Positions 1,108-54,110 of a DNA stretch of 64,000 nucleotides are shown here, in pieces (the first letter of the stretch is position 1; each line of letters starts with the position of its first letter). This DNA is from an uncultured Candidatus Saccharibacteria bacterium (GTDB lineage: Bacteria > Patescibacteriota > UBA1384 > UBA12157 > JAENIV01): positions 60,246 through 124,245 of the forward strand of contig CAYSSM010000001.1 in the NCBI GenBank assembly GCA_964433905.1, read 5' to 3'. The notes beneath the pieces were generated by a model that saw nothing but the letters and a program-made list of their open reading frames with translations, ran no database searches and was not told the origin of the DNA. The position numbers and the translations under genes are program-made.

Positions 1108-3090
1108 ATGGATACACTATTTAATCCACAATCGATTGCTGTTATCGGGGCCTCAAGGCATCCGCAAAAATTAGGTTATCAAATTCTTGATAATATTGTT
1201 AAGAATGGTTTTAAAGGTAAGATTTATCCGATTAATCCCGAAGCAGATAAAATTTTAAACTTAAAAGTATATAAAGAAATTTCTGAAGTTGATGACGAAA
1301 TTGACTTAGCAGTGGTGATTGTGCCGGCTAAAATTGTTGAAAATATAATAGCCAATTGTCAAAAAAAGAATGTTAAGTATGCCATTATTATTTCATCCGG
1401 TTTTGCCGAACAAGGAAAATCCGGTAAAATTTTACAAAATCGTATTAACGACATGCTAAAAGACTCGCCTTTACGAATTATCGGGCCGAACTGTTTGGGA
1501 ATAATTAATACTGACAATAATTTAAATGCTACTTTTGCCGCCCCAAAATTAATCAAGGGAAATGTTGCCGCGGTTTTCCAATCAGGCGCTTTGGGGGCGG
1601 CACTGCTGGATTGGGCGAATGAATATAATTTTGGTTTTTCAAAATTTATCAGTTTAGGCAATAAAATTGATATCGAAGAATCTGAATTGATTGAATATCT
1701 GGCTGAAGACGATGACACTAAAGTTATCGCCCTTTACCTTGAAGATATTCGTGATACCAAAAAATTTTATAGCGTATGCCGTGAAGCTTCATCGCAAAAA
1801 CCAATCATTATTTTAAAAGGCGGTATGACGGTAATTGGCGCAAAAGCGGCTTTTTCACATACGGCGGCGATGGTCACACCTCGTCATATTATCAAAGCTG
1901 TTTTTTCGCAGTCAAATTTGATTGTTGCCAAGACGATTGAAGATTTACTCAATTTAATTCAAGTTCTTTCGTGGGAACCGGCGGCAACATCAAAAAATAT
2001 TGCCATTATCAGTAATGCCGGCGGACCGGCGATTCTTGCCACAGATGTTGCCAGCCGGTGTGGTTTGCATCTGCCCAAACTTCATGAGGAAGTTTTAAAT
2101 AATGTTTTGCCCGAAATCGCATCGAGTGATAATCCAATCGATTTAGGAGGCCAGGCTTCAGCTAAAGATTATCGCAAGGCATTGGATTACTGTCTTAATA
2201 ATAAAATGATTTCATCGATTGTGGGGATTCTTACTCCGCAGACTTCGACCGAAATTGAAGAAACTGCCAAAGTTTTTGCAAGTTTTAACAATGCCAAAAA
2301 ACCGATTGTGGTTTCATTTTTGGGTGATAGATTGGTTGACAAAGGAATTTCTATTTTAAAAGATGCCCATGTTCCTCATTTTGATACGCCGGAAGAAGCA
2401 GTAAAAGCGCTAGCCAGCTCGATTAAATATTGGAAAAAAGACAAACAAAATTATCATCTGATAGATTTTAACTCAACAAATTCTAACGCTAATTGTGATA
2501 ATGTCTATGAAGTGATTGAAAATTACAATATTCCTTTTGCTGAGTTTGAAATCGTCAATAATTTTGATGAGGCAATAAAAATTAGTAAAAATTTAGGTTA
2601 TCCGCTGGTAGCAAAAAACATTTCTGGAAAATTTGTTCATAAACATAAAGCCGGAAAGGTAGTATTAGGTATCAATGATAATCATTCATTTAAGCTGGCT
2701 TTAAAAAAAGTTAGTTTTCCAGCGCTCATTCAAAAAATGATAAATTTACCTTTCGAAGTAATTGTGGGAGTAAAACAGGATATAGATGCCGGAGCAGTTC
2801 TAACTTTTGGCTGGGGTGGTATTTATACCGAGGAAGTTTCTGACATTGCGGTGAGAATTTCTCCCTTGACTTTAAATGATTTGGACGAGATGATAAAAGA
2901 AACAAAGATTGGCCGCATTTTACATCGAGAAAATATTGATTTATCAGTATTGAAAAATATTATGATTGAACTTCTTCAGATTTCAATCGATAACCCGCGT
3001 ATTTTAGAGATCGAAATTAATCCAATCAAATTATCCTTCGATAAAACAATATGCGTTGACGCGCGAATGAAAGTTTCAGAGGTTAAATGA
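1108..3090 (+). CDS. Acetyl-CoA synthetase (ADP-forming), fused alpha/beta (CoA-binding plus ATP-grasp); acetate-forming and ATP-yielding.
   Basis: The N-terminus MDTLFNPQSIAVIGAS...GYQILDNI is a CoA-binding Rossmann domain of the NDP-forming acyl-CoA synthetase family. There is a C-terminal ATP-grasp-like region, and the 660-aa length fits a fused ACD. Confidence 0.75.
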   Translation: MDTLFNPQSIAVIGASRHPQKLGYQILDNIVKNGFKGKIYPINPEADKILNLKVYKEISEVDDEIDLAVVIVPAKIVENIIANCQKKNVKYAIIISSGFAEQGKSGKILQNRINDMLKDSPLRIIGPNCLGIINTDNNLNATFAAPKLIKGNVAAVFQSGALGAALLDWANEYNFGFSKFISLGNKIDIEESELIEYLAEDDDTKVIALYLEDIRDTKKFYSVCREASSQKPIIILKGGMTVIGAKAAFSHTAAMVTPRHIIKAVFSQSNLIVAKTIEDLLNLIQVLSWEPAATSKNIAIISNAGGPAILATDVASRCGLHLPKLHEEVLNNVLPEIASSDNPIDLGGQASAKDYRKALDYCLNNKMISSIVGILTPQTSTEIEETAKVFASFNNAKKPIVVSFLGDRLVDKGISILKDAHVPHFDTPEEAVKALASSIKYWKKDKQNYHLIDFNSTNSNANCDNVYEVIENYNIPFAEFEIVNNFDEAIKISKNLGYPLVAKNISGKFVHKHKAGKVVLGINDNHSFKLALKKVSFPALIQKMINLPFEVIVGVKQDIDAGAVLTFGWGGIYTEEVSDIAVRISPLTLNDLDEMIKETKIGRILHRENIDLSVLKNIMIELLQISIDNPRILEIEINPIKLSFDKTICVDARMKVSEVK

Positions 3091-4151
3091 AAGAGTTACT
3101 TACTGGCAACCAATCGGCAATCAAAGGCGCGTTAGCGGTAGGCGCAGAAATTATGACTGGCTATCCAATTACCCCTACTACGGAAATGCTGGAATATTGG
3201 GCCGAAGAGGCAAATAAGAATCCTGCTTTAAAATTTTTACAGTCAGAAGATGAGATGGCGGCCGGTTTTGCCATGATTGGCGCGATTTTAGCCGGTAAAA
3301 AAGCATTTTCTGCCACCGCCGGTCCCGGCAACATTTTGATGCAGGATGCTTTTGCGATGGCGGAAAACATGAGACTTCCGACAGTGGCTTTTATTAATCA
3401 AAGAGGAGGTCCTTCGACAGGTACGGTTATTTATTCTCAACAAGAGCTTAATTTAACTTGTTTTGGCGGCAATGGCGAAGGCTTGCGGATTGTTTATTCT
3501 TGTGCGGGCGTGCAAGATATGTATGACTATGCGATTAAAGCATTTAACACGGCTTGGAGATACCGTTTCCCGACCTTTATGCTCTCCGATGGCTATCAGG
3601 GAAAAATGAAAACTGAAATTGAAACCTATTCTTTGCAAGAAAAACAAATTGAAAATATTCCCGCCTATCCATATTTATTAAATCCGGCCAATAAAGAAAC
3701 GGTTAATTTACGCAATACTTACAATTTAGAAAAAGATTTAAACTATTTAATAGAGGAGCATAAAAAAGCTTTTGATGAAATTGTACCTGAAATTATTGAA
3801 TTTGAAGATCTTCATACTTTGGATGCTGAGATAGTTATTTTTGCTCACGGAATAATTGCATCAGCCTCAAAACAAGCAATTGACAGCATGCGATCTATGG
3901 GGGTTAAAGTAGGCTTATTTAGGCCTATCACTTTAAATCCATTTCCGAAAGATAATGCCATATCAATTGCCAAGAATAAGCGATTGATATTAGTTATTGA
4001 GTCTTCTTTAGGTCAGTTCGAAAGAGTTGTCAAAGAAAATTTGTACGGTTTGCAAACTAAGATTATTGGTCTAAAAAAACCGGCGCTTGGCATATCACCG
4101 GAAGAAATTATCTCTAAAGTAAATGATATTTTGAAGGAGCAGAATGGCTGA
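3087..4151 (+). CDS. porA: 2-oxoacid (pyruvate):ferredoxin oxidoreductase alpha subunit.
   Basis: The N-terminus GNQSAIKGALAVGAEIMTGYPITPTTEMLEYWAEE is POR/KOR alpha-like. The start overlaps the upstream stop by 4 nt. Confidence 0.8.
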   Translation: MKELLTGNQSAIKGALAVGAEIMTGYPITPTTEMLEYWAEEANKNPALKFLQSEDEMAAGFAMIGAILAGKKAFSATAGPGNILMQDAFAMAENMRLPTVAFINQRGGPSTGTVIYSQQELNLTCFGGNGEGLRIVYSCAGVQDMYDYAIKAFNTAWRYRFPTFMLSDGYQGKMKTEIETYSLQEKQIENIPAYPYLLNPANKETVNLRNTYNLEKDLNYLIEEHKKAFDEIVPEIIEFEDLHTLDAEIVIFAHGIIASASKQAIDSMRSMGVKVGLFRPITLNPFPKDNAISIAKNKRLILVIESSLGQFERVVKENLYGLQTKIIGLKKPALGISPEEIISKVNDILKEQNG

Positions 4152-4872
4152 AGCGGCATTTCCCAAAGTTTGGAAAAAAAGTTCCAAACCACATAAATTT
4201 TGTCCCGGATGTGGTCAGGCATTAGCTTTAAAAATATTGGGCTATGCTATTGATGAACTCGGAATTCAAAATAAAATGGTTTACGGCTGTGATATTGGCT
4301 GCTCACTGCTTACATGGGACATGTTCGATGTTGATACGGTTCAAACGCATCATGGCAGAGTTTTGCCAACCATGGTTGGTTTTAAATTAGCAAAACCTGA
4401 AGCGATTGTAATCGCTTTTATGGGAGATGGTGGCGGCTATGCAATTGGCGCGCAACACTTAATAAATTCGGCAATGCGTAATGACAAAGTAACTGTAATT
4501 TTAATTAACAATGCCAATTATGCGATGACGGGTGGGCAGATGGCGCCGACAACATTAATAGCTGAAAAAACTACCACAACACCGCTGGGAAGAAAAATAG
4601 AAAATTATGGTGGCCCGATTCATGGACCGGAAATGCTTTCCAAAATTGTTTCTGACGATGCCTATTTGGCTCGAACAATCTCAACCAATATTGAAGATTG
4701 CAAAGAAAAAATAAAAAAGGCTTTTCAAAATCAAATTGACAGCCATGGCTTTAGTTTTGTAGAGATTTTATCAATGTGTCCGGTCAATTGGCACACGAAT
4801 ACGCAGGAATCCTTAGATTTTTGTGAAAAAGAAATGGTTAAAATATTTCCGTTGGGAGAATTTAATGATTAA
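4144..4872 (+). CDS. porB: 2-oxoacid:ferredoxin oxidoreductase beta subunit (TPP-binding).
   Basis: CPGCGQ Cys cluster at the N-terminus. GDGGGYAIGAQHLINSAMRNDKVTVILINNANYAMTGGQ is a TPP-binding motif. Confidence 0.8.
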   Translation: MAEAAFPKVWKKSSKPHKFCPGCGQALALKILGYAIDELGIQNKMVYGCDIGCSLLTWDMFDVDTVQTHHGRVLPTMVGFKLAKPEAIVIAFMGDGGGYAIGAQHLINSAMRNDKVTVILINNANYAMTGGQMAPTTLIAEKTTTTPLGRKIENYGGPIHGPEMLSKIVSDDAYLARTISTNIEDCKEKIKKAFQNQIDSHGFSFVEILSMCPVNWHTNTQESLDFCEKEMVKIFPLGEFND

Positions 4873-5692
4873 TATTCTAGTTGCTGGCGAAGGCGGTCAA
4901 GGCGTTCAATCAATCGCTAAAATCATAAATACTTCAGTAGATGAGTCTTCTAAAGAAAGTTGCTACCTGCCAAGCTTTGGGGTAGAACAGCGTGGTGGTG
5001 TTTCTTTAGCTTTTTTAAGAATAGATGCTAAAAAAATACTATATCCGCGTTTTGATAAAGCAGACATTATCGCAGCTTTATGCAGCCGATCGATCGATTC
5101 AATCAAAGACTATATCAAAGATGATACTTTTTTGATATACGACGGCTCAATTGTGGAAAATAGCGTTTTAGATCAAATTAAACCTAAAGTTAAAAAATAT
5201 ATAAATATTCTTGCCAATAATATCGCCATAAAAAAATATTCCGTTAAGTCAGCTAACATGTTGATGTTGGGCGGGGTTGTGGCGCAATTGATAGATGTTA
5301 ACCTATCGATTATCGAAAACAATATTAAGAATGAATTCAAAGATAAAATCGCTGAAAATCCCGAGATTGGGACTATGAATATTAACGCTTTTCACGAAGG
5401 ACTAAATATTGCCAAAAGTTTTGACCAAAGTAGCGAAGAATTGGTCGGTAAGCCAGCGCACGAAATAAAAACGGAATACAAAGATGATAAGAAAAGTTGG
5501 ATTCGTTTTCCCGAATATTGCAAAGGCTGCGGCCTTTGTCTTGTAAGATGTCCTGTTCAAGCGCTTCATTTTTCAAAAGAAGTCGGATTTTTAGGTAATC
5601 CTTTGCCCGAAATTGATATTGATAAATGTATTACTTGCGGTCAATGTGAACAAATCTGTCCAGACGGAGCAATAAAAGTTGAAAAAAGTTAA
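4865..5692 (+). CDS. 2-oxoacid:ferredoxin oxidoreductase gamma subunit fused to a delta (2x[4Fe-4S] ferredoxin) domain.
   Basis: MINILVAGEGGQGVQS is gamma-subunit-like. The C-terminus has two CxxCxxCxxxCP motifs (CKGCGLCLVRCP and CITCGQCEQICP). I chose the ATG at 4865, which overlaps the porB stop by 8 nt, over the ORF-track start at 4823. Confidence 0.7.
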   Translation: MINILVAGEGGQGVQSIAKIINTSVDESSKESCYLPSFGVEQRGGVSLAFLRIDAKKILYPRFDKADIIAALCSRSIDSIKDYIKDDTFLIYDGSIVENSVLDQIKPKVKKYINILANNIAIKKYSVKSANMLMLGGVVAQLIDVNLSIIENNIKNEFKDKIAENPEIGTMNINAFHEGLNIAKSFDQSSEELVGKPAHEIKTEYKDDKKSWIRFPEYCKGCGLCLVRCPVQALHFSKEVGFLGNPLPEIDIDKCITCGQCEQICPDGAIKVEKS

Positions 5693-5750: not shown

Positions 5751-6398
5751 TTATTCATGTAAAAGATCTTTGATTCTTGTTAAATCTCGTGCGTAACTGG
5801 CATAATCTTCAACAAATTCCCGATAATTTTTAGGTGACCCTATTATTTTTAAAATAAAACCGGAATGGCAAAGCCGATCATTGGTATTGTTTAGGTAATG
5901 ATGATATGAAGACCAACTATAAGAAGAGCTGTCATTGCAAATACCAGAGGTATAAGGATTAAGGTGAAGATATCGAGACAAGTGTATCAATTGTTCGTCA
6001 GATTCTATCATAACGACTCGAAACCGTCCTTGGGTTAAAGTTCCCACTCTATCGTTCTTTTCATTATAATATCTTGTGTAACTATCCAAAGACCGTCGCA
6101 TGAAAATACTAATTCCATTATCAACAATCTGACGAAGAAGCAAATGAAAATGATTGGGCATCAGACAATAAGCATATATCTCCACTAGTGGTTTTTGAGG
6201 TTCTATTCTAAGAATTTTATCTATCTCCGTCTTATCAATTTTTGAGAGCCTAAGTTTATCTTTATTTTCAAGATAAAAACTGAAGGTTTTGAGTAGTCTT
6301 AAGTAGTCAAAATCGAAATCAAAAAGATTTTGTTTAGCGACTCCCCTATTATAGACATGATAAAGGTGGTCATTGGCATACACGGGTTTAACATACAT
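5751..6398 (-). CDS. REP-associated tyrosine transposase (RAYT; IS200/IS605-family Y1 HuH transposase).
   Basis: HVYNRG, the HuH motif CLMPNHFHLLL and SRYLHLNPY (catalytic Tyr region) are all present. About 215 aa, flanked by REP-like hairpins. Confidence 0.8.
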   Translation of the reverse strand: MYVKPVYANDHLYHVYNRGVAKQNLFDFDFDYLRLLKTFSFYLENKDKLRLSKIDKTEIDKILRIEPQKPLVEIYAYCLMPNHFHLLLRQIVDNGISIFMRRSLDSYTRYYNEKNDRVGTLTQGRFRVVMIESDEQLIHLSRYLHLNPYTSGICNDSSSYSWSSYHHYLNNTNDRLCHSGFILKIIGSPKNYREFVEDYASYARDLTRIKDLLHE

Positions 6399-6574: not shown

Positions 6575-6646
6575 GGGCCTGTAGCTTAGAGGAAAAGCGT
6601 TAGTATGGCATACTAAAGATCGCGAGTTCGAGTCTCGCCAGGTCCA
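6575..6646 (+). tRNA. tRNA-Ala (anticodon GGC).
   Basis: Cloverleaf folded by hand. The acceptor stem GGGCCTG/CAGGTCC carries the G3:U70 Ala identity pair. D stem GCTT/AAGC. Anticodon stem TTAGT/ACTAA with loop ATGGCAT (U33, GGC, A37). T arm GCGAG-TTCGAGT-CTCGC. Discriminator A73. No CCA is encoded. Confidence 0.85.
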
Positions 6647-17576: not shown

Positions 17577-18012
17577 TGTCTCCGTTATAAATAATAAGGT
17601 TTTTAATCCACAATTTTCTTAGTTTATTTTTGGGCAACATTCCCCAAACCGATCGCTTTAATACTTCTGCCGGATTTTTCTTAAACATATCACTTAACTT
17701 TTCTTCTTTTAAATGTCCGATATAACCGGTGTGATGATAATAGATCTTTTGCGATAGTTTATTGCCGGTAAAAACCATTTTTGAAGCGTTATAAACTTTA
17801 ACTTGATCGCCAATATTTAAATAAGGCACAAAATCGGTTTTAAATTTACCACGCAAAAAATTGGCGACTTGAGTTGATAATCGTCCTAATACCACTCCTG
17901 ATGCATCAATTTCGTGAGATATGATTGGATGGTTATTTAGATTTACCGGTTTTTTGCTTTCCGGTTTCGACATTTTTCTTGGAGTCTTTTTTTGTAATTT
18001 TGTCTGGGGCAT
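17563..18012 (-). CDS. rplM: Ribosomal protein L13.
   Basis: L13 family pattern (..YHHTGYIGHLKE..). Confidence 0.85.
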   Translation of the reverse strand: MPQTKLQKKTPRKMSKPESKKPVNLNNHPIISHEIDASGVVLGRLSTQVANFLRGKFKTDFVPYLNIGDQVKVYNASKMVFTGNKLSQKIYYHHTGYIGHLKEEKLSDMFKKNPAEVLKRSVWGMLPKNKLRKLWIKNLIIYNGDIDAK

Positions 18013-18400
18013 TATCTTTATCCTCTATATTACTTTTGTTATCAATTATTGGTGCTTTTAGGATATTTCTCAATCTTAATAAAACCATGTCCGAACCGTC
18101 TCCCAACCTCTTCGTTAACCGATATTCTTCGATAAAACCCGTATTAATGTCCTCATATCGCGGGGATAAAACCTCGAACATTTTTTTGGTCGCATTTTTA
18201 TCAAAGAAATATCCAATCATTGTTCTTCTGGCATTAAGGTCATTTTTCTTAGCCAAAAAGATTAACTTTTCGGCCATTTTTTTTGTTTCTTTAGCCTTGG
18301 CTTTAGTAGTCTTTATTTTTTCATACAAAATTAAAGAAGTTGTTAAATTTCTTATTAAAGATTTTCGGTGATTGTCTGTTCTTGATAAGGAAATTCTCAT
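17933..18400 (-). CDS. rplQ: Ribosomal protein L17.
   Basis: N-terminus MRISLSRTDNHRKSLIRNLTTSLILYEKIKTT. Confidence 0.85.
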   Translation of the reverse strand: MRISLSRTDNHRKSLIRNLTTSLILYEKIKTTKAKAKETKKMAEKLIFLAKKNDLNARRTMIGYFFDKNATKKMFEVLSPRYEDINTGFIEEYRLTKRLGDGSDMVLLRLRNILKAPIIDNKSNIEDKDNAPDKITKKDSKKNVETGKQKTGKSK

Positions 18401-19173
18401 TTTTTAGCTTTTTTTGCTTTGGCAATTTTGATACTTTTTTTAGGAAGTTTTTTCTCAGGTGTTTTAACTTCCTCGGCTATTTGGCAGGCTTGACCGACGA
18501 GACTAAAATGTTCGACTAAAATTTGTGCTGCTGTTCCTAATGCTTTTTCCGGATCCAACGAACCATCAGTGGTAATTTCCATCGTCAGTTTGTCGAAATT
18601 GGTTTGACCGCCAACACGGGTGTTTTCAACTTCATAATGGACTTTTTTCACCGGTGTATAAATTGAATCTATAGCGATAGTGCCAATAGGCAATTTTTCG
18701 TCTTTTCTTTGCTCTAAAGGAATATAACCGCGACCCTTGTCGACAATAATTTCCATGGTAAGTTTTGCCCCTTTGCCTAAAGTTGCAATGTGAGCATCAG
18801 TGTTAACAACTTCACAAGCGGCATTTTTATCAAAATCTGCCGCAGTAACATTTTTAGGGCCTTTAATATCTAATTTTAATTTTGCCGGCTCTTCGGAATT
18901 GAAACGGAATCTTAATGATTTTAAATTTAAGATAATTTCAATATAATCTTCTTTGACTCCTGGTATGGCCATAAATTGATGGGTAATCCCCTCAATTTTA
19001 ACTGAATTAATCGCTGAGCCCTCAAGCGATGACAAAAGCACCCTTCTTAATGAGTTTCCAATAGTTACACCGTAACCGGGCGATAATGGCTCAATTTGAA
19101 ATGTGCCACGGTTATCGACCTTTTCTAAAGTTTTAATTTGTAATAAGCTTGTCTCTTGAAGTGTATAATCCAT
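18397..19173 (-). CDS. rpoA: DNA-directed RNA polymerase alpha subunit, NTD only (258 aa); no recognisable alpha-CTD.
   Basis: FQIEPLSPGYGVTIGNSLRRVLLSSLEGSA is the alpha-NTD. The protein ends in a short Lys-rich tail. Confidence 0.85.
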   Translation of the reverse strand: MDYTLQETSLLQIKTLEKVDNRGTFQIEPLSPGYGVTIGNSLRRVLLSSLEGSAINSVKIEGITHQFMAIPGVKEDYIEIILNLKSLRFRFNSEEPAKLKLDIKGPKNVTAADFDKNAACEVVNTDAHIATLGKGAKLTMEIIVDKGRGYIPLEQRKDEKLPIGTIAIDSIYTPVKKVHYEVENTRVGGQTNFDKLTMEITTDGSLDPEKALGTAAQILVEHFSLVGQACQIAEEVKTPEKKLPKKSIKIAKAKKAKK

Positions 19174-19217
19174 ACTGCCTCCGCGATGAGATGTAACTCA
19201 TCGTAATTAATATTTTA

Positions 19218-19808
19218 TTATCTTCGATAAAACTCAATAATCAATTGTTCGTCTAAGTCCGTATCAATCTCGGTCCGTAACGGAACGTGATCAACAAGCG
19301 CTTCCGTTTTTTTACCTTCGGCTTTCAACCATTTTGGGACAGTTACTTTTGTCACTTTTATATCATCGGATTTTTTTGGTGTAATTTTATCATGTGGTTT
19401 TAAAACCATTGAAGAGATGTTGCTTGGTTGGTCATTAATCATTATTTTTCGATGGCTGATTAATTGTTTGGCCTGTGTTCTGGATACCGCCCAACCTAAT
19501 CTGTAAAGAATATTGTCGAATCTTAATTCAAGCAGTTTCAATAATTCCTCGCCGGTTTGTTCGCGCGATTTAGAGGCGTTATTGAATATCTTGGCGAATT
19601 CCCGCTCTCTTAAGCCATATTCGGCTTTTGCTTTCTGCTTTTCTTGCATTTGACGTCCATACTCTGATTTTCTTGGATTTTGATTTTTAGCGCCGTGATC
19701 ACCAGGCAAATAATTTCTTCGAGTGAATGCGCATTTAGGACTGGTGCAACGAACACCTTTTAAAAATAATTTAGTTCCATGCTTTCGACAAAGACTACAT
19801 TTATCCAT
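19218..19808 (-). CDS. rpsD: Ribosomal protein S4.
   Basis: CSLCRKHGTKLFLKG is the N-terminal zinc-knuckle region of S4. Confidence 0.9.
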   Translation of the reverse strand: MDKCSLCRKHGTKLFLKGVRCTSPKCAFTRRNYLPGDHGAKNQNPRKSEYGRQMQEKQKAKAEYGLREREFAKIFNNASKSREQTGEELLKLLELRFDNILYRLGWAVSRTQAKQLISHRKIMINDQPSNISSMVLKPHDKITPKKSDDIKVTKVTVPKWLKAEGKKTEALVDHVPLRTEIDTDLDEQLIIEFYRR

Positions 19809-20191
19809 CAGACTCTCCTTGCTTTTTTGGGTCGGGTGCCGTTATGCGGAACCGGTGTAGTATCTTTAATCTGAGTAACCTTAATTCCTTGTCCACCTAT
19901 TGCTCTGACTGCGGATTCACGACCTGAACCAACGCCAGATATCATTACAACGGCTTCAGTGATACTGTATGGACCTGCTTTTTCTAAAGCTTTTCTGACA
20001 GCAATTTGAGCAGCAAATGGGGTCGATTTTTTAGCACCGCTAAAACCGACTGAGCCAGCCGTAGCCCAAGATAAAGTGTTACCGGAGGCATCAGCGATGG
20101 TTACAATACAATTATTAAAGGATGATTGGATAAAAATAATCGCTTTATCAACCTGTTTAATTTGTTTTTTCTTTTTAATCTGTTTAGCCAT
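19808..20191 (-). CDS. rpsK: Ribosomal protein S11.
   Basis: S11 family; position in the alpha operon. Confidence 0.9.
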   Translation of the reverse strand: MAKQIKKKKQIKQVDKAIIFIQSSFNNCIVTIADASGNTLSWATAGSVGFSGAKKSTPFAAQIAVRKALEKAGPYSITEAVVMISGVGSGRESAVRAIGGQGIKVTQIKDTTPVPHNGTRPKKARRV

Positions 20192-20207
20192 TTTTATACT
20201 CTAAATA

Positions 20208-20594
20208 TTATGTTTTTTCGGCAGATTTTTTGCGACCTGAACCAACGGTAACTCTTTTGCCTCTTTTGGTTCGAGCGTTTGTTCGTGTTCGCTGGCCTCT
20301 GACGGGCAAATTTTTAATATGACGGATTCCTCGATAGGATTTAATTTCCTTAATCCTCTTGATATTTTGACTTACTTCCATACGCAAATCGCCTTCAATT
20401 TTATAATTTTTATCAATAACCTCGCGGATTCTTTCAAGTTCCTGATCTGATAAATCAGCAGTTTTTGTGCCAAGTTTAATGTTGGCTAATTGACATATTT
20501 TCTTTGCTAACGGCAAACCAACACCTTTTAAATAAGAAAGTGAATATTCGATATGTTTATTATCCGGAATATTTATACCAGCAATTCTTGCCAT
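20208..20594 (-). CDS. rpsM: Ribosomal protein S13.
   Basis: N-terminus MARIAGINIPDNKHIEYSLSYLKGVG. Confidence 0.9.
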   Translation of the reverse strand: MARIAGINIPDNKHIEYSLSYLKGVGLPLAKKICQLANIKLGTKTADLSDQELERIREVIDKNYKIEGDLRMEVSQNIKRIKEIKSYRGIRHIKNLPVRGQRTRTNARTKRGKRVTVGSGRKKSAEKT

Positions 20595-20849: not shown

Positions 20850-21062
20850 CTACAGTCGTCTAGTTATTCTACCTTTAGTCAAATCGTATGGCGACATTTC
20901 TAATTGAACCCGATCACCGGGCAATATTTTTATGTAATGTAGGCGGATTTTCCCTGAAATGTAAGCTAAGACAATTTGATTATTGTCTAACTCAACTCTA
21001 AAAATAGCATTAGGCAATGCCTCAACGACTTCGCCTTCAAAAATCAATTTTTCTTTTTTCAA
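20850..21062 (-). CDS. infA: Translation initiation factor IF-1.
   Basis: S1-like OB fold: ..[32 protein letters not shown].. Confidence 0.9.
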
Positions 21063-21132: not shown

Positions 21133-21966
21133 CTATTCGTCAAGTGTCATGGTGGCGAAAAGTTCATTTTTTCTTACCAATGACAGGATTAAACTTCTTA
21201 AAAAGGGAACTCTCAATTGGCTATGATACTGACTAATAGCCTTTTCCTTGAGTTTCAAATCATCATCGGAAAGTAAGAGTCTTTTCCATTGTTTATCATT
21301 TGTAACTACATCGACAGGTGGCAATAAAAATAAATTTGGACGATATTTTTTAGGTTGAGGGTAGCGATAATCATGAATTAAATATTTGTAAGCTGTAACT
21401 TTACTGTTATTTTTAATAACTTTTTCAACAATTTGGCCGGTTACTGAATGGTCGGGATGGATATCTAAAGGATGGGGATAAGCAATATAATTTGGCTCAA
21501 AATCGTCAATTTGATCTTTAAATAGCTTGTCTAATAATACTTCATCTTTCCCTCTTAATTTTCCGTCAGGCAAGTCTAAAAAGACTAAATTGTCGTTTTT
21601 TACTCCGAGGATACTAGTTGCTTTTCTAAATTCTTCATATCTTTTGACTTCTTTGCCCTGTTTATTACCGTCGGTCACCAAGATGATTTTCACAATTGCT
21701 TCGCGTTTAGTTGCTTCAATAATATAACCACCAACACCGATGGTTTCATCGTCAGGATGAGGAGAAAACACCAATAATTTGTCCCCCTTTTGAGGAACAT
21801 TAATATTATCCAGCAAATAAATAGCAGATTGCGGTAAAACATGGTTAAAACTGGCATAAATAAAGCTTGGAACAAAAAATAAACTTAAAACAATAACGAC
21901 TATTTGAATTTTGCGATTTAAAAATAATTTCTTTACTTTACTCATGGGTAAGAATTTCAACGCCAT
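21133..21966 (-). CDS. PIG-L/LmbE-family N-acetylglucosaminyl deacetylase-like protein with an N-terminal TM anchor.
   Basis: LLVFSPHPDDETIGVGGY is the HPDDE LmbE signature; ..VTDGN.. N-terminal hydrophobic helix. Confidence 0.6.
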   Translation of the reverse strand: MALKFLPMSKVKKLFLNRKIQIVVIVLSLFFVPSFIYASFNHVLPQSAIYLLDNINVPQKGDKLLVFSPHPDDETIGVGGYIIEATKREAIVKIILVTDGNKQGKEVKRYEEFRKATSILGVKNDNLVFLDLPDGKLRGKDEVLLDKLFKDQIDDFEPNYIAYPHPLDIHPDHSVTGQIVEKVIKNNSKVTAYKYLIHDYRYPQPKKYRPNLFLLPPVDVVTNDKQWKRLLLSDDDLKLKEKAISQYHSQLRVPFLRSLILSLVRKNELFATMTLDE

Positions 21967-51637: not shown

Positions 51638-52183
51638 TTAGTTGTTGGTTAAAAGTTTTCTTAAACGCAAAGTGTTTGCCACATCGCTATCACTTGCATT
51701 TAGACTTGATAAAAATTCGTCAAACTCAGGATTATTAAAAAATAAATTATCACATTTAAGGCTACAAATTACCGAATATTGCCTGAATAACAATTTACCT
51801 ATCGGCCGACTCAGTTCTGCCGGAGTGGGAGAAAGTATCATAAAATAAAATTTTTGTTTTTCTCTTGCAAGTATTTGAAAATCGTTTAATTTATTTTTAT
51901 CAAGATCGTCAGACTGCCCTTTGAAAATTACTATATCTCCAGAATCATAACAAAATGCAGCTGCTTGGATGATACTTTTTTTGCCAACAGCTGGATTTGC
52001 AATATTTACTACCACATGATCAGGTAAAATCGTAATCGGCCCTTTAGTATTAGGCAGCAATTCATCAAGCGTTAAAAATATGCCAAAAGGATAATATAAA
52101 CACAGAACAGGAAATATTTCAGATCCATCAGCCTTAAGACCGATAGATGCCACTGAAGCTGTTAGCACACTGGCTACTGGCAT
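51638..52183 (-). CDS. Hypothetical protein (181 aa).
   Basis: The true start is AAGGAGGAAATT-ATG at 52183. The 105-aa N-terminal extension in the ORF track (to 52498) runs through a terminator and into the neighbouring GC-rich gene, so it is spurious. Confidence 0.55.
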   Translation of the reverse strand: MPVASVLTASVASIGLKADGSEIFPVLCLYYPFGIFLTLDELLPNTKGPITILPDHVVVNIANPAVGKKSIIQAAAFCYDSGDIVIFKGQSDDLDKNKLNDFQILAREKQKFYFMILSPTPAELSRPIGKLLFRQYSVICSLKCDNLFFNNPEFDEFLSSLNASDSDVANTLRLRKLLTNN

Positions 52184-52268
52184 AATTTCCTCCTTGTCAA
52201 AGTACAATTCATTCTTAATTACAACATTATAACTAATATTATTATTTCGCAAGATAATCTTTTTAGAT

Positions 52269-52304
52269 AAAAAAAATGCGCCCGGGACAAAATGTCCCGG
52301 GCGC
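52269..52304 (-). terminator. Strong GC-rich rho-independent terminator: GCGCCCGGGAC-loop-GTCCCGGGCGC (11 bp) followed by an 8-U run.
   Basis: Plus strand: AAAAAAAATGCGCCCGGGACAAAATGTCCCGGGCGC. It lies 28 nt after the stop of the SdrD-like gene. Confidence 0.8.
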
Positions 52305-52331
52305 TTAAAGTTCGTCACCGTCTTGCGGTCA

Positions 52332-54110
52332 CTACGGGTAAATGACCGTTCCCGGATCAGGCAAGATGAACGGAACAGCGTCGTTATTGTTGAGTAAGTC
52401 GAGCTGACCCGCCATCGCCGTTCGTTGGGAATCGCTCCCACTCTGCCAGACCTGAATTGCCTGGGTAACCAACGTCTGCGTTGACACCCAAGAACCATTC
52501 AACCAGATCGCAGCTCCTACACCACCCAGCCGATGCCGACAGTTCATAATGAAAGCATCGAGCTGTTGAGCCAGTTGTTCACGCGGATCGCCGCCGGCGT
52601 TGGAATCAACAAGGAAATGGCTTTGCTCGGCCAAGGCCGAACCGGCAGGAGCGATGGTCTCTCCCCAGTCGCCGTTGGCAGCAGCAACGGGGGTTCCGTT
52701 AGCAAAAAAACCGTCAATCGGCTCGTCGCCGGCGCCAAAGTAACTGGACGGCGCTTGCCACGGAGCCAGACTGTTAAGGTATGCAATGTCAGACGGAGTA
52801 GTTTCACCCAACCCGTTCTTGTTATGCCAATACCCCTTGGTATCAAAATCAGCCTGGCCTTGGCGAATGTTGCCGAACTCCACTCGAGCCGAATCACCTG
52901 AAGCCAGTTGAATCTGCCTTGTCATGGGAGTAGTGTTCACCCACCCACCAGAAAGAGGCATCCGTTCGGTGATATCGTACAAACCCGGCATGATCCAGAA
53001 GGTGTCACAACCGTTAGACTTGGTTATGGAAACGCTGTCCCATACCCACCCTGCCACGGTTGTGCCATGCTCGTAGATCCACCAGCCGGGAATACCAGGC
53101 TCGCCTGCGTCCCAGATACCGTCGCCATCGAGGTCGTAGAACTTACAGACCGTTAGACGGGCCAACTGGATGTTGCCGAAGATAACTTCATGAGTTTCCC
53201 GGGAAGTCCCGGCAACCAAGAAATAGGCCGCAGGATAGTCGCGGATGCGGACGCCGTCGAGGTAGGTGCAGGTGTACATCCACCCTTCGCGCTGTTCCTC
53301 AACGAAGTTCCAAAATCCAGCCGGTTCAGTGGTGATCTGGATGGGCGTATAGTAAGTGTTGGTAACACCGAGGGGATCGATTGCATCAACCCGCCAACCA
53401 GTGATTTCCAACTCGCCTGCATCCCAGATACCGTTACCGTTAGCATCGTTGAACTTCTTAACAGTCACGACCGGCGGCGTATATGGAGGACCATTACGAC
53501 GCACCTTAAAGTTGTCGGTCTTGCTGTCCGGTGGCCTGAAACCGTGATAATTCCCCGGGCTGTAGCCGTTGTCAACGAGGTTGGGATCGCCGATGAAGTT
53601 TTCGCACGGAGTTATCCATACCTTGTAGACACCACCCTTATTGGGTGTGTCAAGGTAGGGCATCAACTGAACAGTGATCGCGCCCAGTTCAGGGTGATCG
53701 ATATCGATGCCCGTCTTGTGAGTGCAGTCGACTTCCACCCAGACACCCCTGACCTTCGTCAGCTTGGTGCACGGGTAGACATAGTCGATGACCCCAAGAG
53801 CACTGACGTGGACCTTGCGGCACTTAACCGCGTCTGTCGAGAGAAGAACCTTCCCTGACGGGTCAGTGACCTGAAAGTAGTAATCGCCCTCGTTAAGCCC
53901 CGCCGCGCCCGCAGGCGCGTTGGACCCAGGCCCGCCATCGAGATAGACATCCTCTTTGGCCGCGAAGATGTTAGCGTTGACTCGCGAACCGTCAGCCGTG
54001 GTCGTAAAAATCGCCCCCGGCATCGGCCCGGCCAAAGCCTGAGTGCTGGCCAGTGCCAACACCCCCAAAGTAGCCAGCACAACCATAATCAGCACAACCC
54101 TTCGTCCCAT
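52332..54110 (-). CDS. Secreted protein with two SdrD-B-like (Cna-B type, Ca-binding) repeat domains; GC-rich, probably of foreign origin.
   Basis: Signal peptide MGRRVVLIMVVLATLGVLALASTQALAGP. FNDANGNGIWDAGELEITGW and FYDLDGDGIWDAGEPGIPGW match the D.NGNG..D.GE.G..G motif. Codon usage is strikingly G/C-rich versus the flanking genes. Confidence 0.75.
   Translation of the reverse strand: MGRRVVLIMVVLATLGVLALASTQALAGPMPGAIFTTTADGSRVNANIFAAKEDVYLDGGPGSNAPAGAAGLNEGDYYFQVTDPSGKVLLSTDAVKCRKVHVSALGVIDYVYPCTKLTKVRGVWVEVDCTHKTGIDIDHPELGAITVQLMPYLDTPNKGGVYKVWITPCENFIGDPNLVDNGYSPGNYHGFRPPDSKTDNFKVRRNGPPYTPPVVTVKKFNDANGNGIWDAGELEITGWRVDAIDPLGVTNTYYTPIQITTEPAGFWNFVEEQREGWMYTCTYLDGVRIRDYPAAYFLVAGTSRETHEVIFGNIQLARLTVCKFYDLDGDGIWDAGEPGIPGWWIYEHGTTVAGWVWDSVSITKSNGCDTFWIMPGLYDITERMPLSGGWVNTTPMTRQIQLASGDSARVEFGNIRQGQADFDTKGYWHNKNGLGETTPSDIAYLNSLAPWQAPSSYFGAGDEPIDGFFANGTPVAAANGDWGETIAPAGSALAEQSHFLVDSNAGGDPREQLAQQLDAFIMNCRHRLGGVGAAIWLNGSWVSTQTLVTQAIQVWQSGSDSQRTAMAGQLDLLNNNDAVPFILPDPGTVIYP

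Follow-up and report, generated by a model that had tools for sequence, protein, structure and literature searches.

The alpha subunit of bacterial RNA polymerase (RNAP) consists of an N-terminal domain (NTD) joined by a flexible linker to a C-terminal domain (CTD; PF03118), which is made of two helix-hairpin-helix motifs, recognizes UP elements, and is contacted by a large fraction of the known activators. The linker leaves RNAP at its upstream face, toward the upstream DNA to which the CTD binds. Work in Escherichia coli and Bacillus subtilis established that RNAP with a CTD-less alpha assembles and carries out basal transcription without UP-element or class I contacts. Here, we analyzed an rpoA gene that encodes a natural alpha subunit of this kind. 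It lies in a stretch of 64,000 nucleotides, referred to below as the window, from an uncultured “Candidatus Saccharibacteria” bacterium (NCBI GenBank assembly GCA_964433905.1, contig CAYSSM010000001.1, positions 60,246 to 124,245 of the forward strand).

B. subtilis with a C-terminally truncated alpha still grows, with a doubling time of 1.9 h versus 1.0 h (PMC4495994). Natural CTD loss is described, in passages of one article, for the alpha subunits of Hodgkinia and Tremblaya and for the chloroplast rpoA of Euglena (PMC8321222, citing Sheveleva 2002). The same passages give one sentence to the Parcubacteria, stating that the loss “is also present in Parcubacteria” (PMC8321222); the main text of the source cited for this claim makes no mention of RNA polymerase (Nelson & Stegen 2015, PMC4508563). 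In the open-access literature on the alpha-CTD and the candidate phyla radiation (CPR), Patescibacteria, or Berkelbacteria, we found nothing beyond that sentence. This included a lack of open-access papers on CTD loss in Berkelbacteria or its patchy distribution in the CPR and on a conserved polybasic tail, polybasic linkers in CTD-bearing relatives, or AT-hook-like ends. CTD loss has precedents, and the conserved basic tail appears to be undescribed in this literature.

The window RpoA and its relatives

The window RpoA is a complete protein of 258 amino acids (aa) in which only NTD families were recognized. Pfam placed PF01000 at residues 58 to 173 (E value, 1.7e-33) and PF01193 at residues 28 to 223 (E value, 1.2e-23), and neither PF03118 nor the helix-hairpin-helix family PF14520 matched the protein even at an E value of ≤1. 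Both NCBIfam rpoA equivalogs recognized it above their cutoffs (NF003519, 298.2 bits versus 277; TIGR02027, 275.1 bits versus 227.8) and aligned only at profile positions ∼1 to 246 of ∼300 to 340, the N-terminal ∼75%. Alignments to alpha subunits in the PDB were all confined to RpoA residues ∼13 to 245. An AlphaFold2 model, computed from a 75-sequence alignment, has a mean predicted local distance difference test (pLDDT) score of 90.6 and adopts the canonical alpha-NTD fold up to a helix at residues 208 to 229. Its top PDB matches in Foldseek are RNAP alpha NTDs, with target-normalized template modeling scores of 0.85 to 0.95 and root mean square deviations of 1.2 to 3 Å. R43 and R44 of the GNSLRR motif are among the NTD positions that are invariant in alignments of 34 and 75 sequences.

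The gene starts with ATG and occupies the operon position expected of rpoA, in the order rpsM, rpsK, rpsD, rpoA, rplQ, rplM, rpsI; Pfam confirmed the first five of these, and the assignments of rplM and rpsI come from the list of open reading frames (ORFs) only. We conclude that the protein is a bona fide bacterial RpoA from which one defining family feature, the CTD, is missing. An initial annotation had described it as a 258-aa alpha NTD with a Lys-rich tail and no alpha-CTD, and both statements hold. The products of rpoB and rpoC are the partner subunits that are assembled on the alpha dimer. Based on the NTD fold, the invariant NTD positions, and the presence of complete rpoB and rpoC genes in the window, the assembly function of alpha looks intact.

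The window RpoA is 100% identical to P0001, from the CPR member Berkelbacteria bacterium GW2011_GWB1_38_5 (taxon labels are the submitters' own throughout), and 9 contigs from several repositories encode the identical sequence. The best-scoring 120 clusters (62 to 100% identity, several of them named Berkelbacteria) contain proteins of 245 to 287 aa. For all 120, the precomputed Pfam annotation is PF01000 plus PF01193 only, and a CTD profile hidden Markov model (HMM) built from 87 CTD-bearing homologs matched none of them. The alignment with other RpoA proteins that had been proposed as a check thus returned the same build in 120 of 120 close homologs. The CTD-less build is a fixed lineage trait of a Berkelbacteria-type clade, carried by a complete NTD-only gene, and is neither a truncation nor an assembly error. 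We consider it nearly certain that the domain loss in this rpoA is real and complete.

CTD loss extends beyond this clade. Among 150 representatives of 50%-identity clusters, ∼85 have a CTD and ∼65 do not. Most of the long (300 to 450 aa) “CTD-less” representatives were discarded as chimeras or as Arg-rich translations of the wrong frame, leaving a real CTD-less set of 250- to 300-aa proteins. PF03118 and PF14520 were absent at an E value of ≤1 from the ten distant CTD-less proteins that we checked by Pfam (L003, L009, L024, P0133, P0139, P0141, P0142, P0182, P0219, and P0123), and an L17 match lies just 3′ of rpoA in both L009 and L024. A scan of one genome per GTDB species, which sampled no Berkelbacteria, yielded at least 80 loci, mostly non-CPR, and served as the CTD-bearing control. 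Among the matches listed, 71 of the 73 non-CPR loci have an intact CTD; the other two are frameshifted (L070) or have only a truncated CTD match (L002). The CPR loci among these matches include ones with a CTD (Saccharibacteria L001 and L077, Gribaldobacteria L056, and Patescibacteria L006) and ones without (Veblenbacteria L009, Patescibacteria L003, and L024, which lies on an 898,885-bp chromosome).

The closest CTD-bearing relatives of the window RpoA share 48 to 52% identity with it (P0126, P0128, and P0134), and they include two 321-aa proteins labeled “Candidatus Berkelbacteria” (P0312 and P0313) that carry PF03118. The CTD-less P0133 and the CTD-bearing Saccharibacteria L001 share 66% NTD identity and pair with a bootstrap of 100 in a neighbor-joining tree of NTDs, of which only well-supported shallow pairs were used. 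Based on the retention of the CTD in Saccharibacteria, Gribaldobacteria, some Berkelbacteria-labeled relatives, and nearly all of the non-CPR loci, we infer that the loss is secondary within the CPR, i.e., derived rather than ancestral, and that it probably occurred more than once.

We also encountered two tandem-fused alpha subunits, each encoded just 5′ of rplQ. The first (P0122; L104, positions 3001 to 4581; NCBI GCA_003864475.1, contig BGZO01000033.1) is a 526-aa NTD-NTD-CTD protein with two diverged NTD copies and one CTD, and the second (P0130; L105, positions 3001 to 4995; JGI Ga0466735_163865) is a 664-aa NTD-CTD-NTD-CTD protein. They look like natural single-chain alpha “dimers,” and the number of CTDs per alpha dimer seems to vary in nature among 2, 1, and 0. 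A third protein, P0121 (569 aa), contains an exact internal duplication and is probably an assembly artifact.

The polybasic tail and its possible role

In the AlphaFold2 model, residues 230 to 258 beyond the NTD form a coil whose pLDDT drops from 76 to 56. The last 22 residues, 237 to 258 (KTPEKKLPKKSIKIAKAKKAKK), include 11 Lys, and this 50% Lys content is the highest among the C-termini of the 68 window ORFs, followed by those of L17 and L15, which are nucleic-acid binders. In the 120 close homologs, the post-NTD segment has a median length of 27 aa (range, 9 to 51) and cannot be aligned in sequence. Its composition is constant across these homologs, with a median net charge of +10. The tail is disordered, rich in Lys, Ala, Pro, and Thr, and poor in acidic and aromatic residues, as are histone H1-like tails; bacterial DNA-binding tails of this kind, rich in the same four residues, are known from the C-terminal tails of actinobacterial HU proteins and from chlamydial Hc1.

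The NTD-CTD linkers of the 49 nearest CTD-bearing relatives have a median length of 29 aa, 29% Lys, and a median net charge of +2, with 24 of the 49 at +3 or above. The corresponding values for the 71 non-CPR loci among the matches listed are 15 aa, 7% Lys, and −4, with none of the 71 reaching +3. Since CTD-bearing relatives, including some Berkelbacteria-labeled ones, already have long Lys-rich linkers, the tail is best read as a preexisting polybasic linker that was kept and further enriched after deletion of the CTD.

A second kind of ending recurs in four CTD-less clusters (P0166/P0277, the P0182 cluster, P0219, and Veblenbacteria L009), which carry KKRGRPKK at the extreme C-terminus of otherwise divergent tails. 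The motif was found in none of the CTD-bearing sequences, and, as a motif match only, it would correspond to the AT-hook core. In L009 the KKRGRPKK end falls at residues 253 to 262, and an acidic stretch precedes the motif, as it does in P0166, P0182, and P0219.

Taken as a whole, the observations are best explained by an NTD-only alpha that has retained its linker as a tail making nonspecific contacts with upstream DNA, a reading to which we assign a probability of roughly 0.6. The NTD would still dimerize and scaffold beta and beta′, so that basal sigma-dependent transcription would work. We infer that UP-element recognition and class I (CTD-contacting) activation are impossible without the CTD. 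Two disordered basic tails would emerge from RNAP on its upstream side, along the usual path of the linker to the CTD, and could make nonspecific electrostatic contacts with AT-rich DNA 5′ of the −35 element; in the lineages with KKRGRPKK ends, AT-hook-type minor-groove contacts would take their place. Such contacts would partly replace the generic DNA tethering of the CTD and not its regulatory role. Full-length CRP/FNR regulators are reported to be absent from the CPR (bioRxiv 10.1101/2025.07.04.663149), which fits relaxed selection on the CTD.

The idea of tail-DNA contact is supported comparatively, by the conserved composition, the top Lys rank, the polybasic linkers, and the AT-hook-like ends. 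Taken by itself, the proposal that the tail acts through DNA contact is tentative, and we would put it slightly below even odds. A broader scenario is more doubtful still, though possible: that several CPR lineages underwent repeated CTD loss with functional replacement by a minimal linker module, either the H1-like polylysine tail of the Berkelbacteria type or the AT-hook of the Veblenbacteria type, that tethers RNAP to AT-rich upstream DNA by way of both alpha tails. If true, this would amount to a constitutive, activator-independent surrogate for UP elements with zero class I activation, and to a distinct bacterial promoter-recognition architecture. The polybasic and AT-hook-like tails suggest a simple, testable stand-in for the DNA tethering of the CTD.

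Several observations weigh against the reading of a DNA-contacting linker tail or narrow it. The Pfam AT_hook model (PF02178) scores L009 at 11.9 bits, below its cutoff of 17.4, and there is no GRP core in the tail of the window RpoA, limiting the AT-hook argument to relatives only. Basic tails are not universal, as those of some CTD-less CPR proteins are acidic or mixed (e.g., P0143, P0164, and P0206). The deep nodes of the NTD tree have bootstraps of 2 to 20, which makes the number of independent losses uncertain. The CTD search covered 64 kb of the genome, and a CTD elsewhere is formally possible. Finally, RNA or acidic proteins are equally conceivable as partners of a Lys-rich tail.

The most probable rival explanation, which we nonetheless regard as unlikely, is that the tail serves something other than promoter-upstream DNA, such as nascent RNA or ribosomes, an acidic partner, or nucleoid localization. 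The loss of the CTD would be unchanged under this explanation. The remaining Lys-rich termini in the window belong to the RNA-binding ribosomal proteins L17, L15, L23, and S11, and polybasic linkers are already present in relatives whose CTD covers DNA contact, both of which speak for such a role. Against it stand the position of the tail on RNAP, which is that of the linker toward the upstream-DNA-binding CTD, and the DNA minor-groove motif KKRGRPKK at the ends of four CTD-less clusters.

Less probable again is a linker remnant without any function, its Lys richness a by-product of an AT-rich genome. The genome is indeed ∼37% GC (63% AT), the tails vary from 9 to 51 aa without being alignable, and some distant CTD-less RpoA proteins have short or acidic tails. 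The amino acid composition points the other way. We compared 3,420 tail residues from the 120 homologs with the NTD and with a random-codon expectation (percentages are given in that order): K, 42.6, 8.0, and 5.1; N, 0.6, 3.9, and 5.1; A, 11.1, 6.4, and 3.9; T, 8.8, 8.1, and 6.3; V, 8.8, 9.7, and 6.3; P, 5.6, 4.7, and 3.9; R, 1.0, 3.6, and 7.1; F, 0.1, 3.4, and 5.1; and Y, 0.0, 1.8, and 5.1. Because Lys is far above, and Asn, Phe, and Tyr are far below, the ∼5% that AT bias predicts for each of them, AT-driven drift cannot yield the tail composition. The same composition is held from 62% to 100% NTD identity and recurs in a separate CTD-less lineage (P0133). Judged by these comparisons, the composition of the tail is under selection or constraint.

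Search for a displaced or hidden CTD

A split alpha, with the CTD supplied to RNAP in trans from its own gene at another place in the genome, is very improbable. The check for a separate CTD ORF called for by the initial annotation was negative in the 64-kb window, to which the search was confined, and the question was thereby settled for the window and not for the rest of the genome. tblastn with E. coli and B. subtilis CTD queries found nothing in the window, and an unfiltered search of all 1,303 six-frame segments with the CTD profile HMM gave a best E value of 0.29 (7.6 bits), which amounts to no match. A separate CTD gene within the window was rejected on these grounds.

Short PF03118-only proteins do occur: a CPR CTD profile recovered 33 of them from a collection of 5.8 billion proteins, and their existence speaks for a split. 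Of these, the two carried on the longest contigs derive from ordinary rpoA genes, broken in one case by a frameshift and in the other by the contig end, and both lie directly 5′ of rplQ. In a metagenome scan for the Berkelbacteria-type CTD, 20 of 21 loci have it in its canonical position, between the alpha NTD (where upstream sequence was present) and rplQ. To our knowledge, there is no way for a free alpha-CTD to attach to RNAP.

The sole odd locus of the 21 is L095 (JGI Ga0209431_10197613), a 1.6-kb contig (1,590 nt) with half a CTD. Positions 904 to 1224 encode a 106-aa ORF directly 5′ of rplQ, whose C-terminus is the second half only of a Berkelbacteria-type alpha-CTD and whose N-terminus is unrelated. 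A membrane-protein ORF stands upstream, where the alpha NTD would be. This locus could be a chimera or a real rearrangement.

A CTD hidden downstream by a frameshift, named in the initial annotation as what would overturn its claim, is excluded by the junction with rplQ and by the six-frame HMM search. The rpoA stop codon TGA (18399..18397) overlaps the rplQ start codon ATG (18400..18398) in an ATGA arrangement, and the match of L17 to its Pfam model begins at residue 15; therefore, no coding space is left for a frameshifted CTD. Slippage by −1 at the A-run GCA AAA AAA would run into TAA after one more codon, so no RpoA-L17 fusion is possible. An artifact more generally (misassembly, a pseudogene, or a sequencing frameshift where the 3′ end is rich in A) might be suspected from the indel-prone A-runs that encode the tail and from the many 300- to 450-aa “CTD-less” database entries that truly are frameshifted or chimeric, but it is effectively refuted by the rplQ start inside the rpoA stop codon, the prompt TAA after a slip, the identical protein on 9 contigs from independent sources, and the 120 homologous clusters of the same length and architecture.

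The alpha-CTD is regarded as a component that every bacterial RNAP has. With its fixed absence from a large environmental lineage and its patchy absence across the CPR, these bacteria lack an entire mode of gene regulation, in keeping with the small sets of regulators in CPR episymbionts. UP-element logic should not be assumed in promoter models for the CPR, and pipelines and marker-gene sets that expect an RpoA of ∼315 to 330 aa will mislabel CTD-less genes as partial.

Window features and comparison with known systems

The coordinates of rpoA, its parts, and other features of the window are collected in Table 1. Downstream of rpoA, L17 has a Lys-rich C-terminal extension that runs ∼45 aa past its Pfam domain, and the first ∼35 aa of the presumed L13 are Lys rich; such basic extensions seem to recur among the nucleic-acid-binding proteins of this genome. 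Upstream of the alpha operon, a gene for a PIG-L family de-N-acetylase lies just 5′ of an infA-like ORF and separates the spc-type from the alpha-type ribosomal gene blocks, an unusual insertion amid otherwise conserved gene order. The 592-aa ORF lies in a GC-rich island (52.5% GC at positions 52001 to 54000, versus 34 to 42% elsewhere), and its sole match is a weak, subthreshold SdrD_B-like one; the region may have been horizontally acquired or be a binning or assembly chimera. The IS200-like transposase ORF adjoins the only tRNA gene in the window, in which we found no rRNA operon.

TABLE 1 Positions of rpoA, its segments, and other features in the 64-kb window
Feature	Position	Strand	Basis or remark
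rpoA, complete CTD-less alpha subunit, 258 aa	18397..19173 (stop codon included)	minus	ORF list, Pfam, NCBIfam
Alpha NTD, residues 1-229, dimerization and beta/beta′ assembly platform	18487..19173	minus	AlphaFold2, Foldseek, Pfam
Disordered C-terminal segment, residues 230-258 (~29 residues)	18400..18486	minus	AlphaFold2 coil
Polybasic tail, residues 237-258	18400..18465	minus	11/22 residues Lys
Shine-Dalgarno GGAGG, 4 nt 5′ of rpoA ATG	19178..19182	minus	Read directly off sequence
rplQ (L17)	17933..18400	minus	ORF; PF01196 at residues 15-110
Presumed L13 ORF	17563..18012	minus	ORF list
rpsD, rpsK, rpsM block 5′ of rpoA, canonical alpha operon context	19218..20594	minus	Pfam S4, S11, S13
rpsD	19218..19808	minus	Pfam S4
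rpsK	19808..20191	minus	Pfam S11
rpsM	20208..20594	minus	Pfam S13
infA-like ORF	20850..21062		
PIG-L family de-N-acetylase	21133..21966	minus	N-terminal hydrophobic segment
rpoC, 1255 aa	42825..46592	minus	All Rpb1 Pfam domains found
rpoB, 1093 aa	46592..49873	minus	All Rpb2 Pfam domains found
IS200-like Y1 transposase ORF	5751..6398	minus	PF01797, E value 1.2e-6
tRNA-Ala(GGC)	6575..6646	plus	
592-aa ORF	52332..54110	minus	Signal-peptide-like N-terminus
GyrA, 973 aa	58840..61761	minus	~67-residue acidic/Lys-rich N-terminal extension ahead of topoisomerase domain

Among known proteins without an alpha-CTD, archaeal Rpo3 (subunit D) and eukaryotic Rpb3/AC40 likewise use the PF01193/PF01000 fold as an assembly platform, and the window RpoA has weak matches to models of the archaeal subunits D and L. 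Unlike these subunits, the window protein is clearly a bacterial RpoA by its equivalog matches and operon, and its CTD-less state would be a derived one. Tails of the window type resemble histone H1-like tails and AT-hook (PF02178) proteins in being disordered and rich in Lys, Ala, Thr, Pro, and Val, with KAKK and KPKK repeats, and the KKRGRPKK core of the relatives is identical to the AT-hook consensus. They differ from AT-hooks in that the window protein lacks the GRP core and L009 falls short of the Pfam threshold.

The described natural losses are closer in kind. As in Hodgkinia, Tremblaya, and the Euglena plastid, the NTD is kept, the CTD is lost, and transcription factors are few. Those cases, as presented in the passages of PMC8321222, concern intracellular endosymbionts or plastids with eroding genes, and these passages describe no basic tail for them. 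Here, by contrast, the gene belongs to a CPR bacterium whose rpoB and rpoC are intact; its alpha NTD is well conserved, and the composition of its tail is under selection. The mention of Parcubacteria concerns the same phenomenon in the same superphylum; the passages in which it occurs (PMC8321222) do not describe Berkelbacteria, how the loss is distributed, or either the polybasic tail or AT-hook-like ends. The nearest functional parallels are engineered, namely, E. coli alpha(1-235) and the B. subtilis RpoA deletion (PMC4495994), which also consist of the NTD only, support core and holoenzyme assembly and basal transcription, and have lost UP-element- and CTD-dependent activation. The window alpha differs from these laboratory constructs in being natural and fixed in its clade and in carrying a conserved polybasic tail that they do not have.

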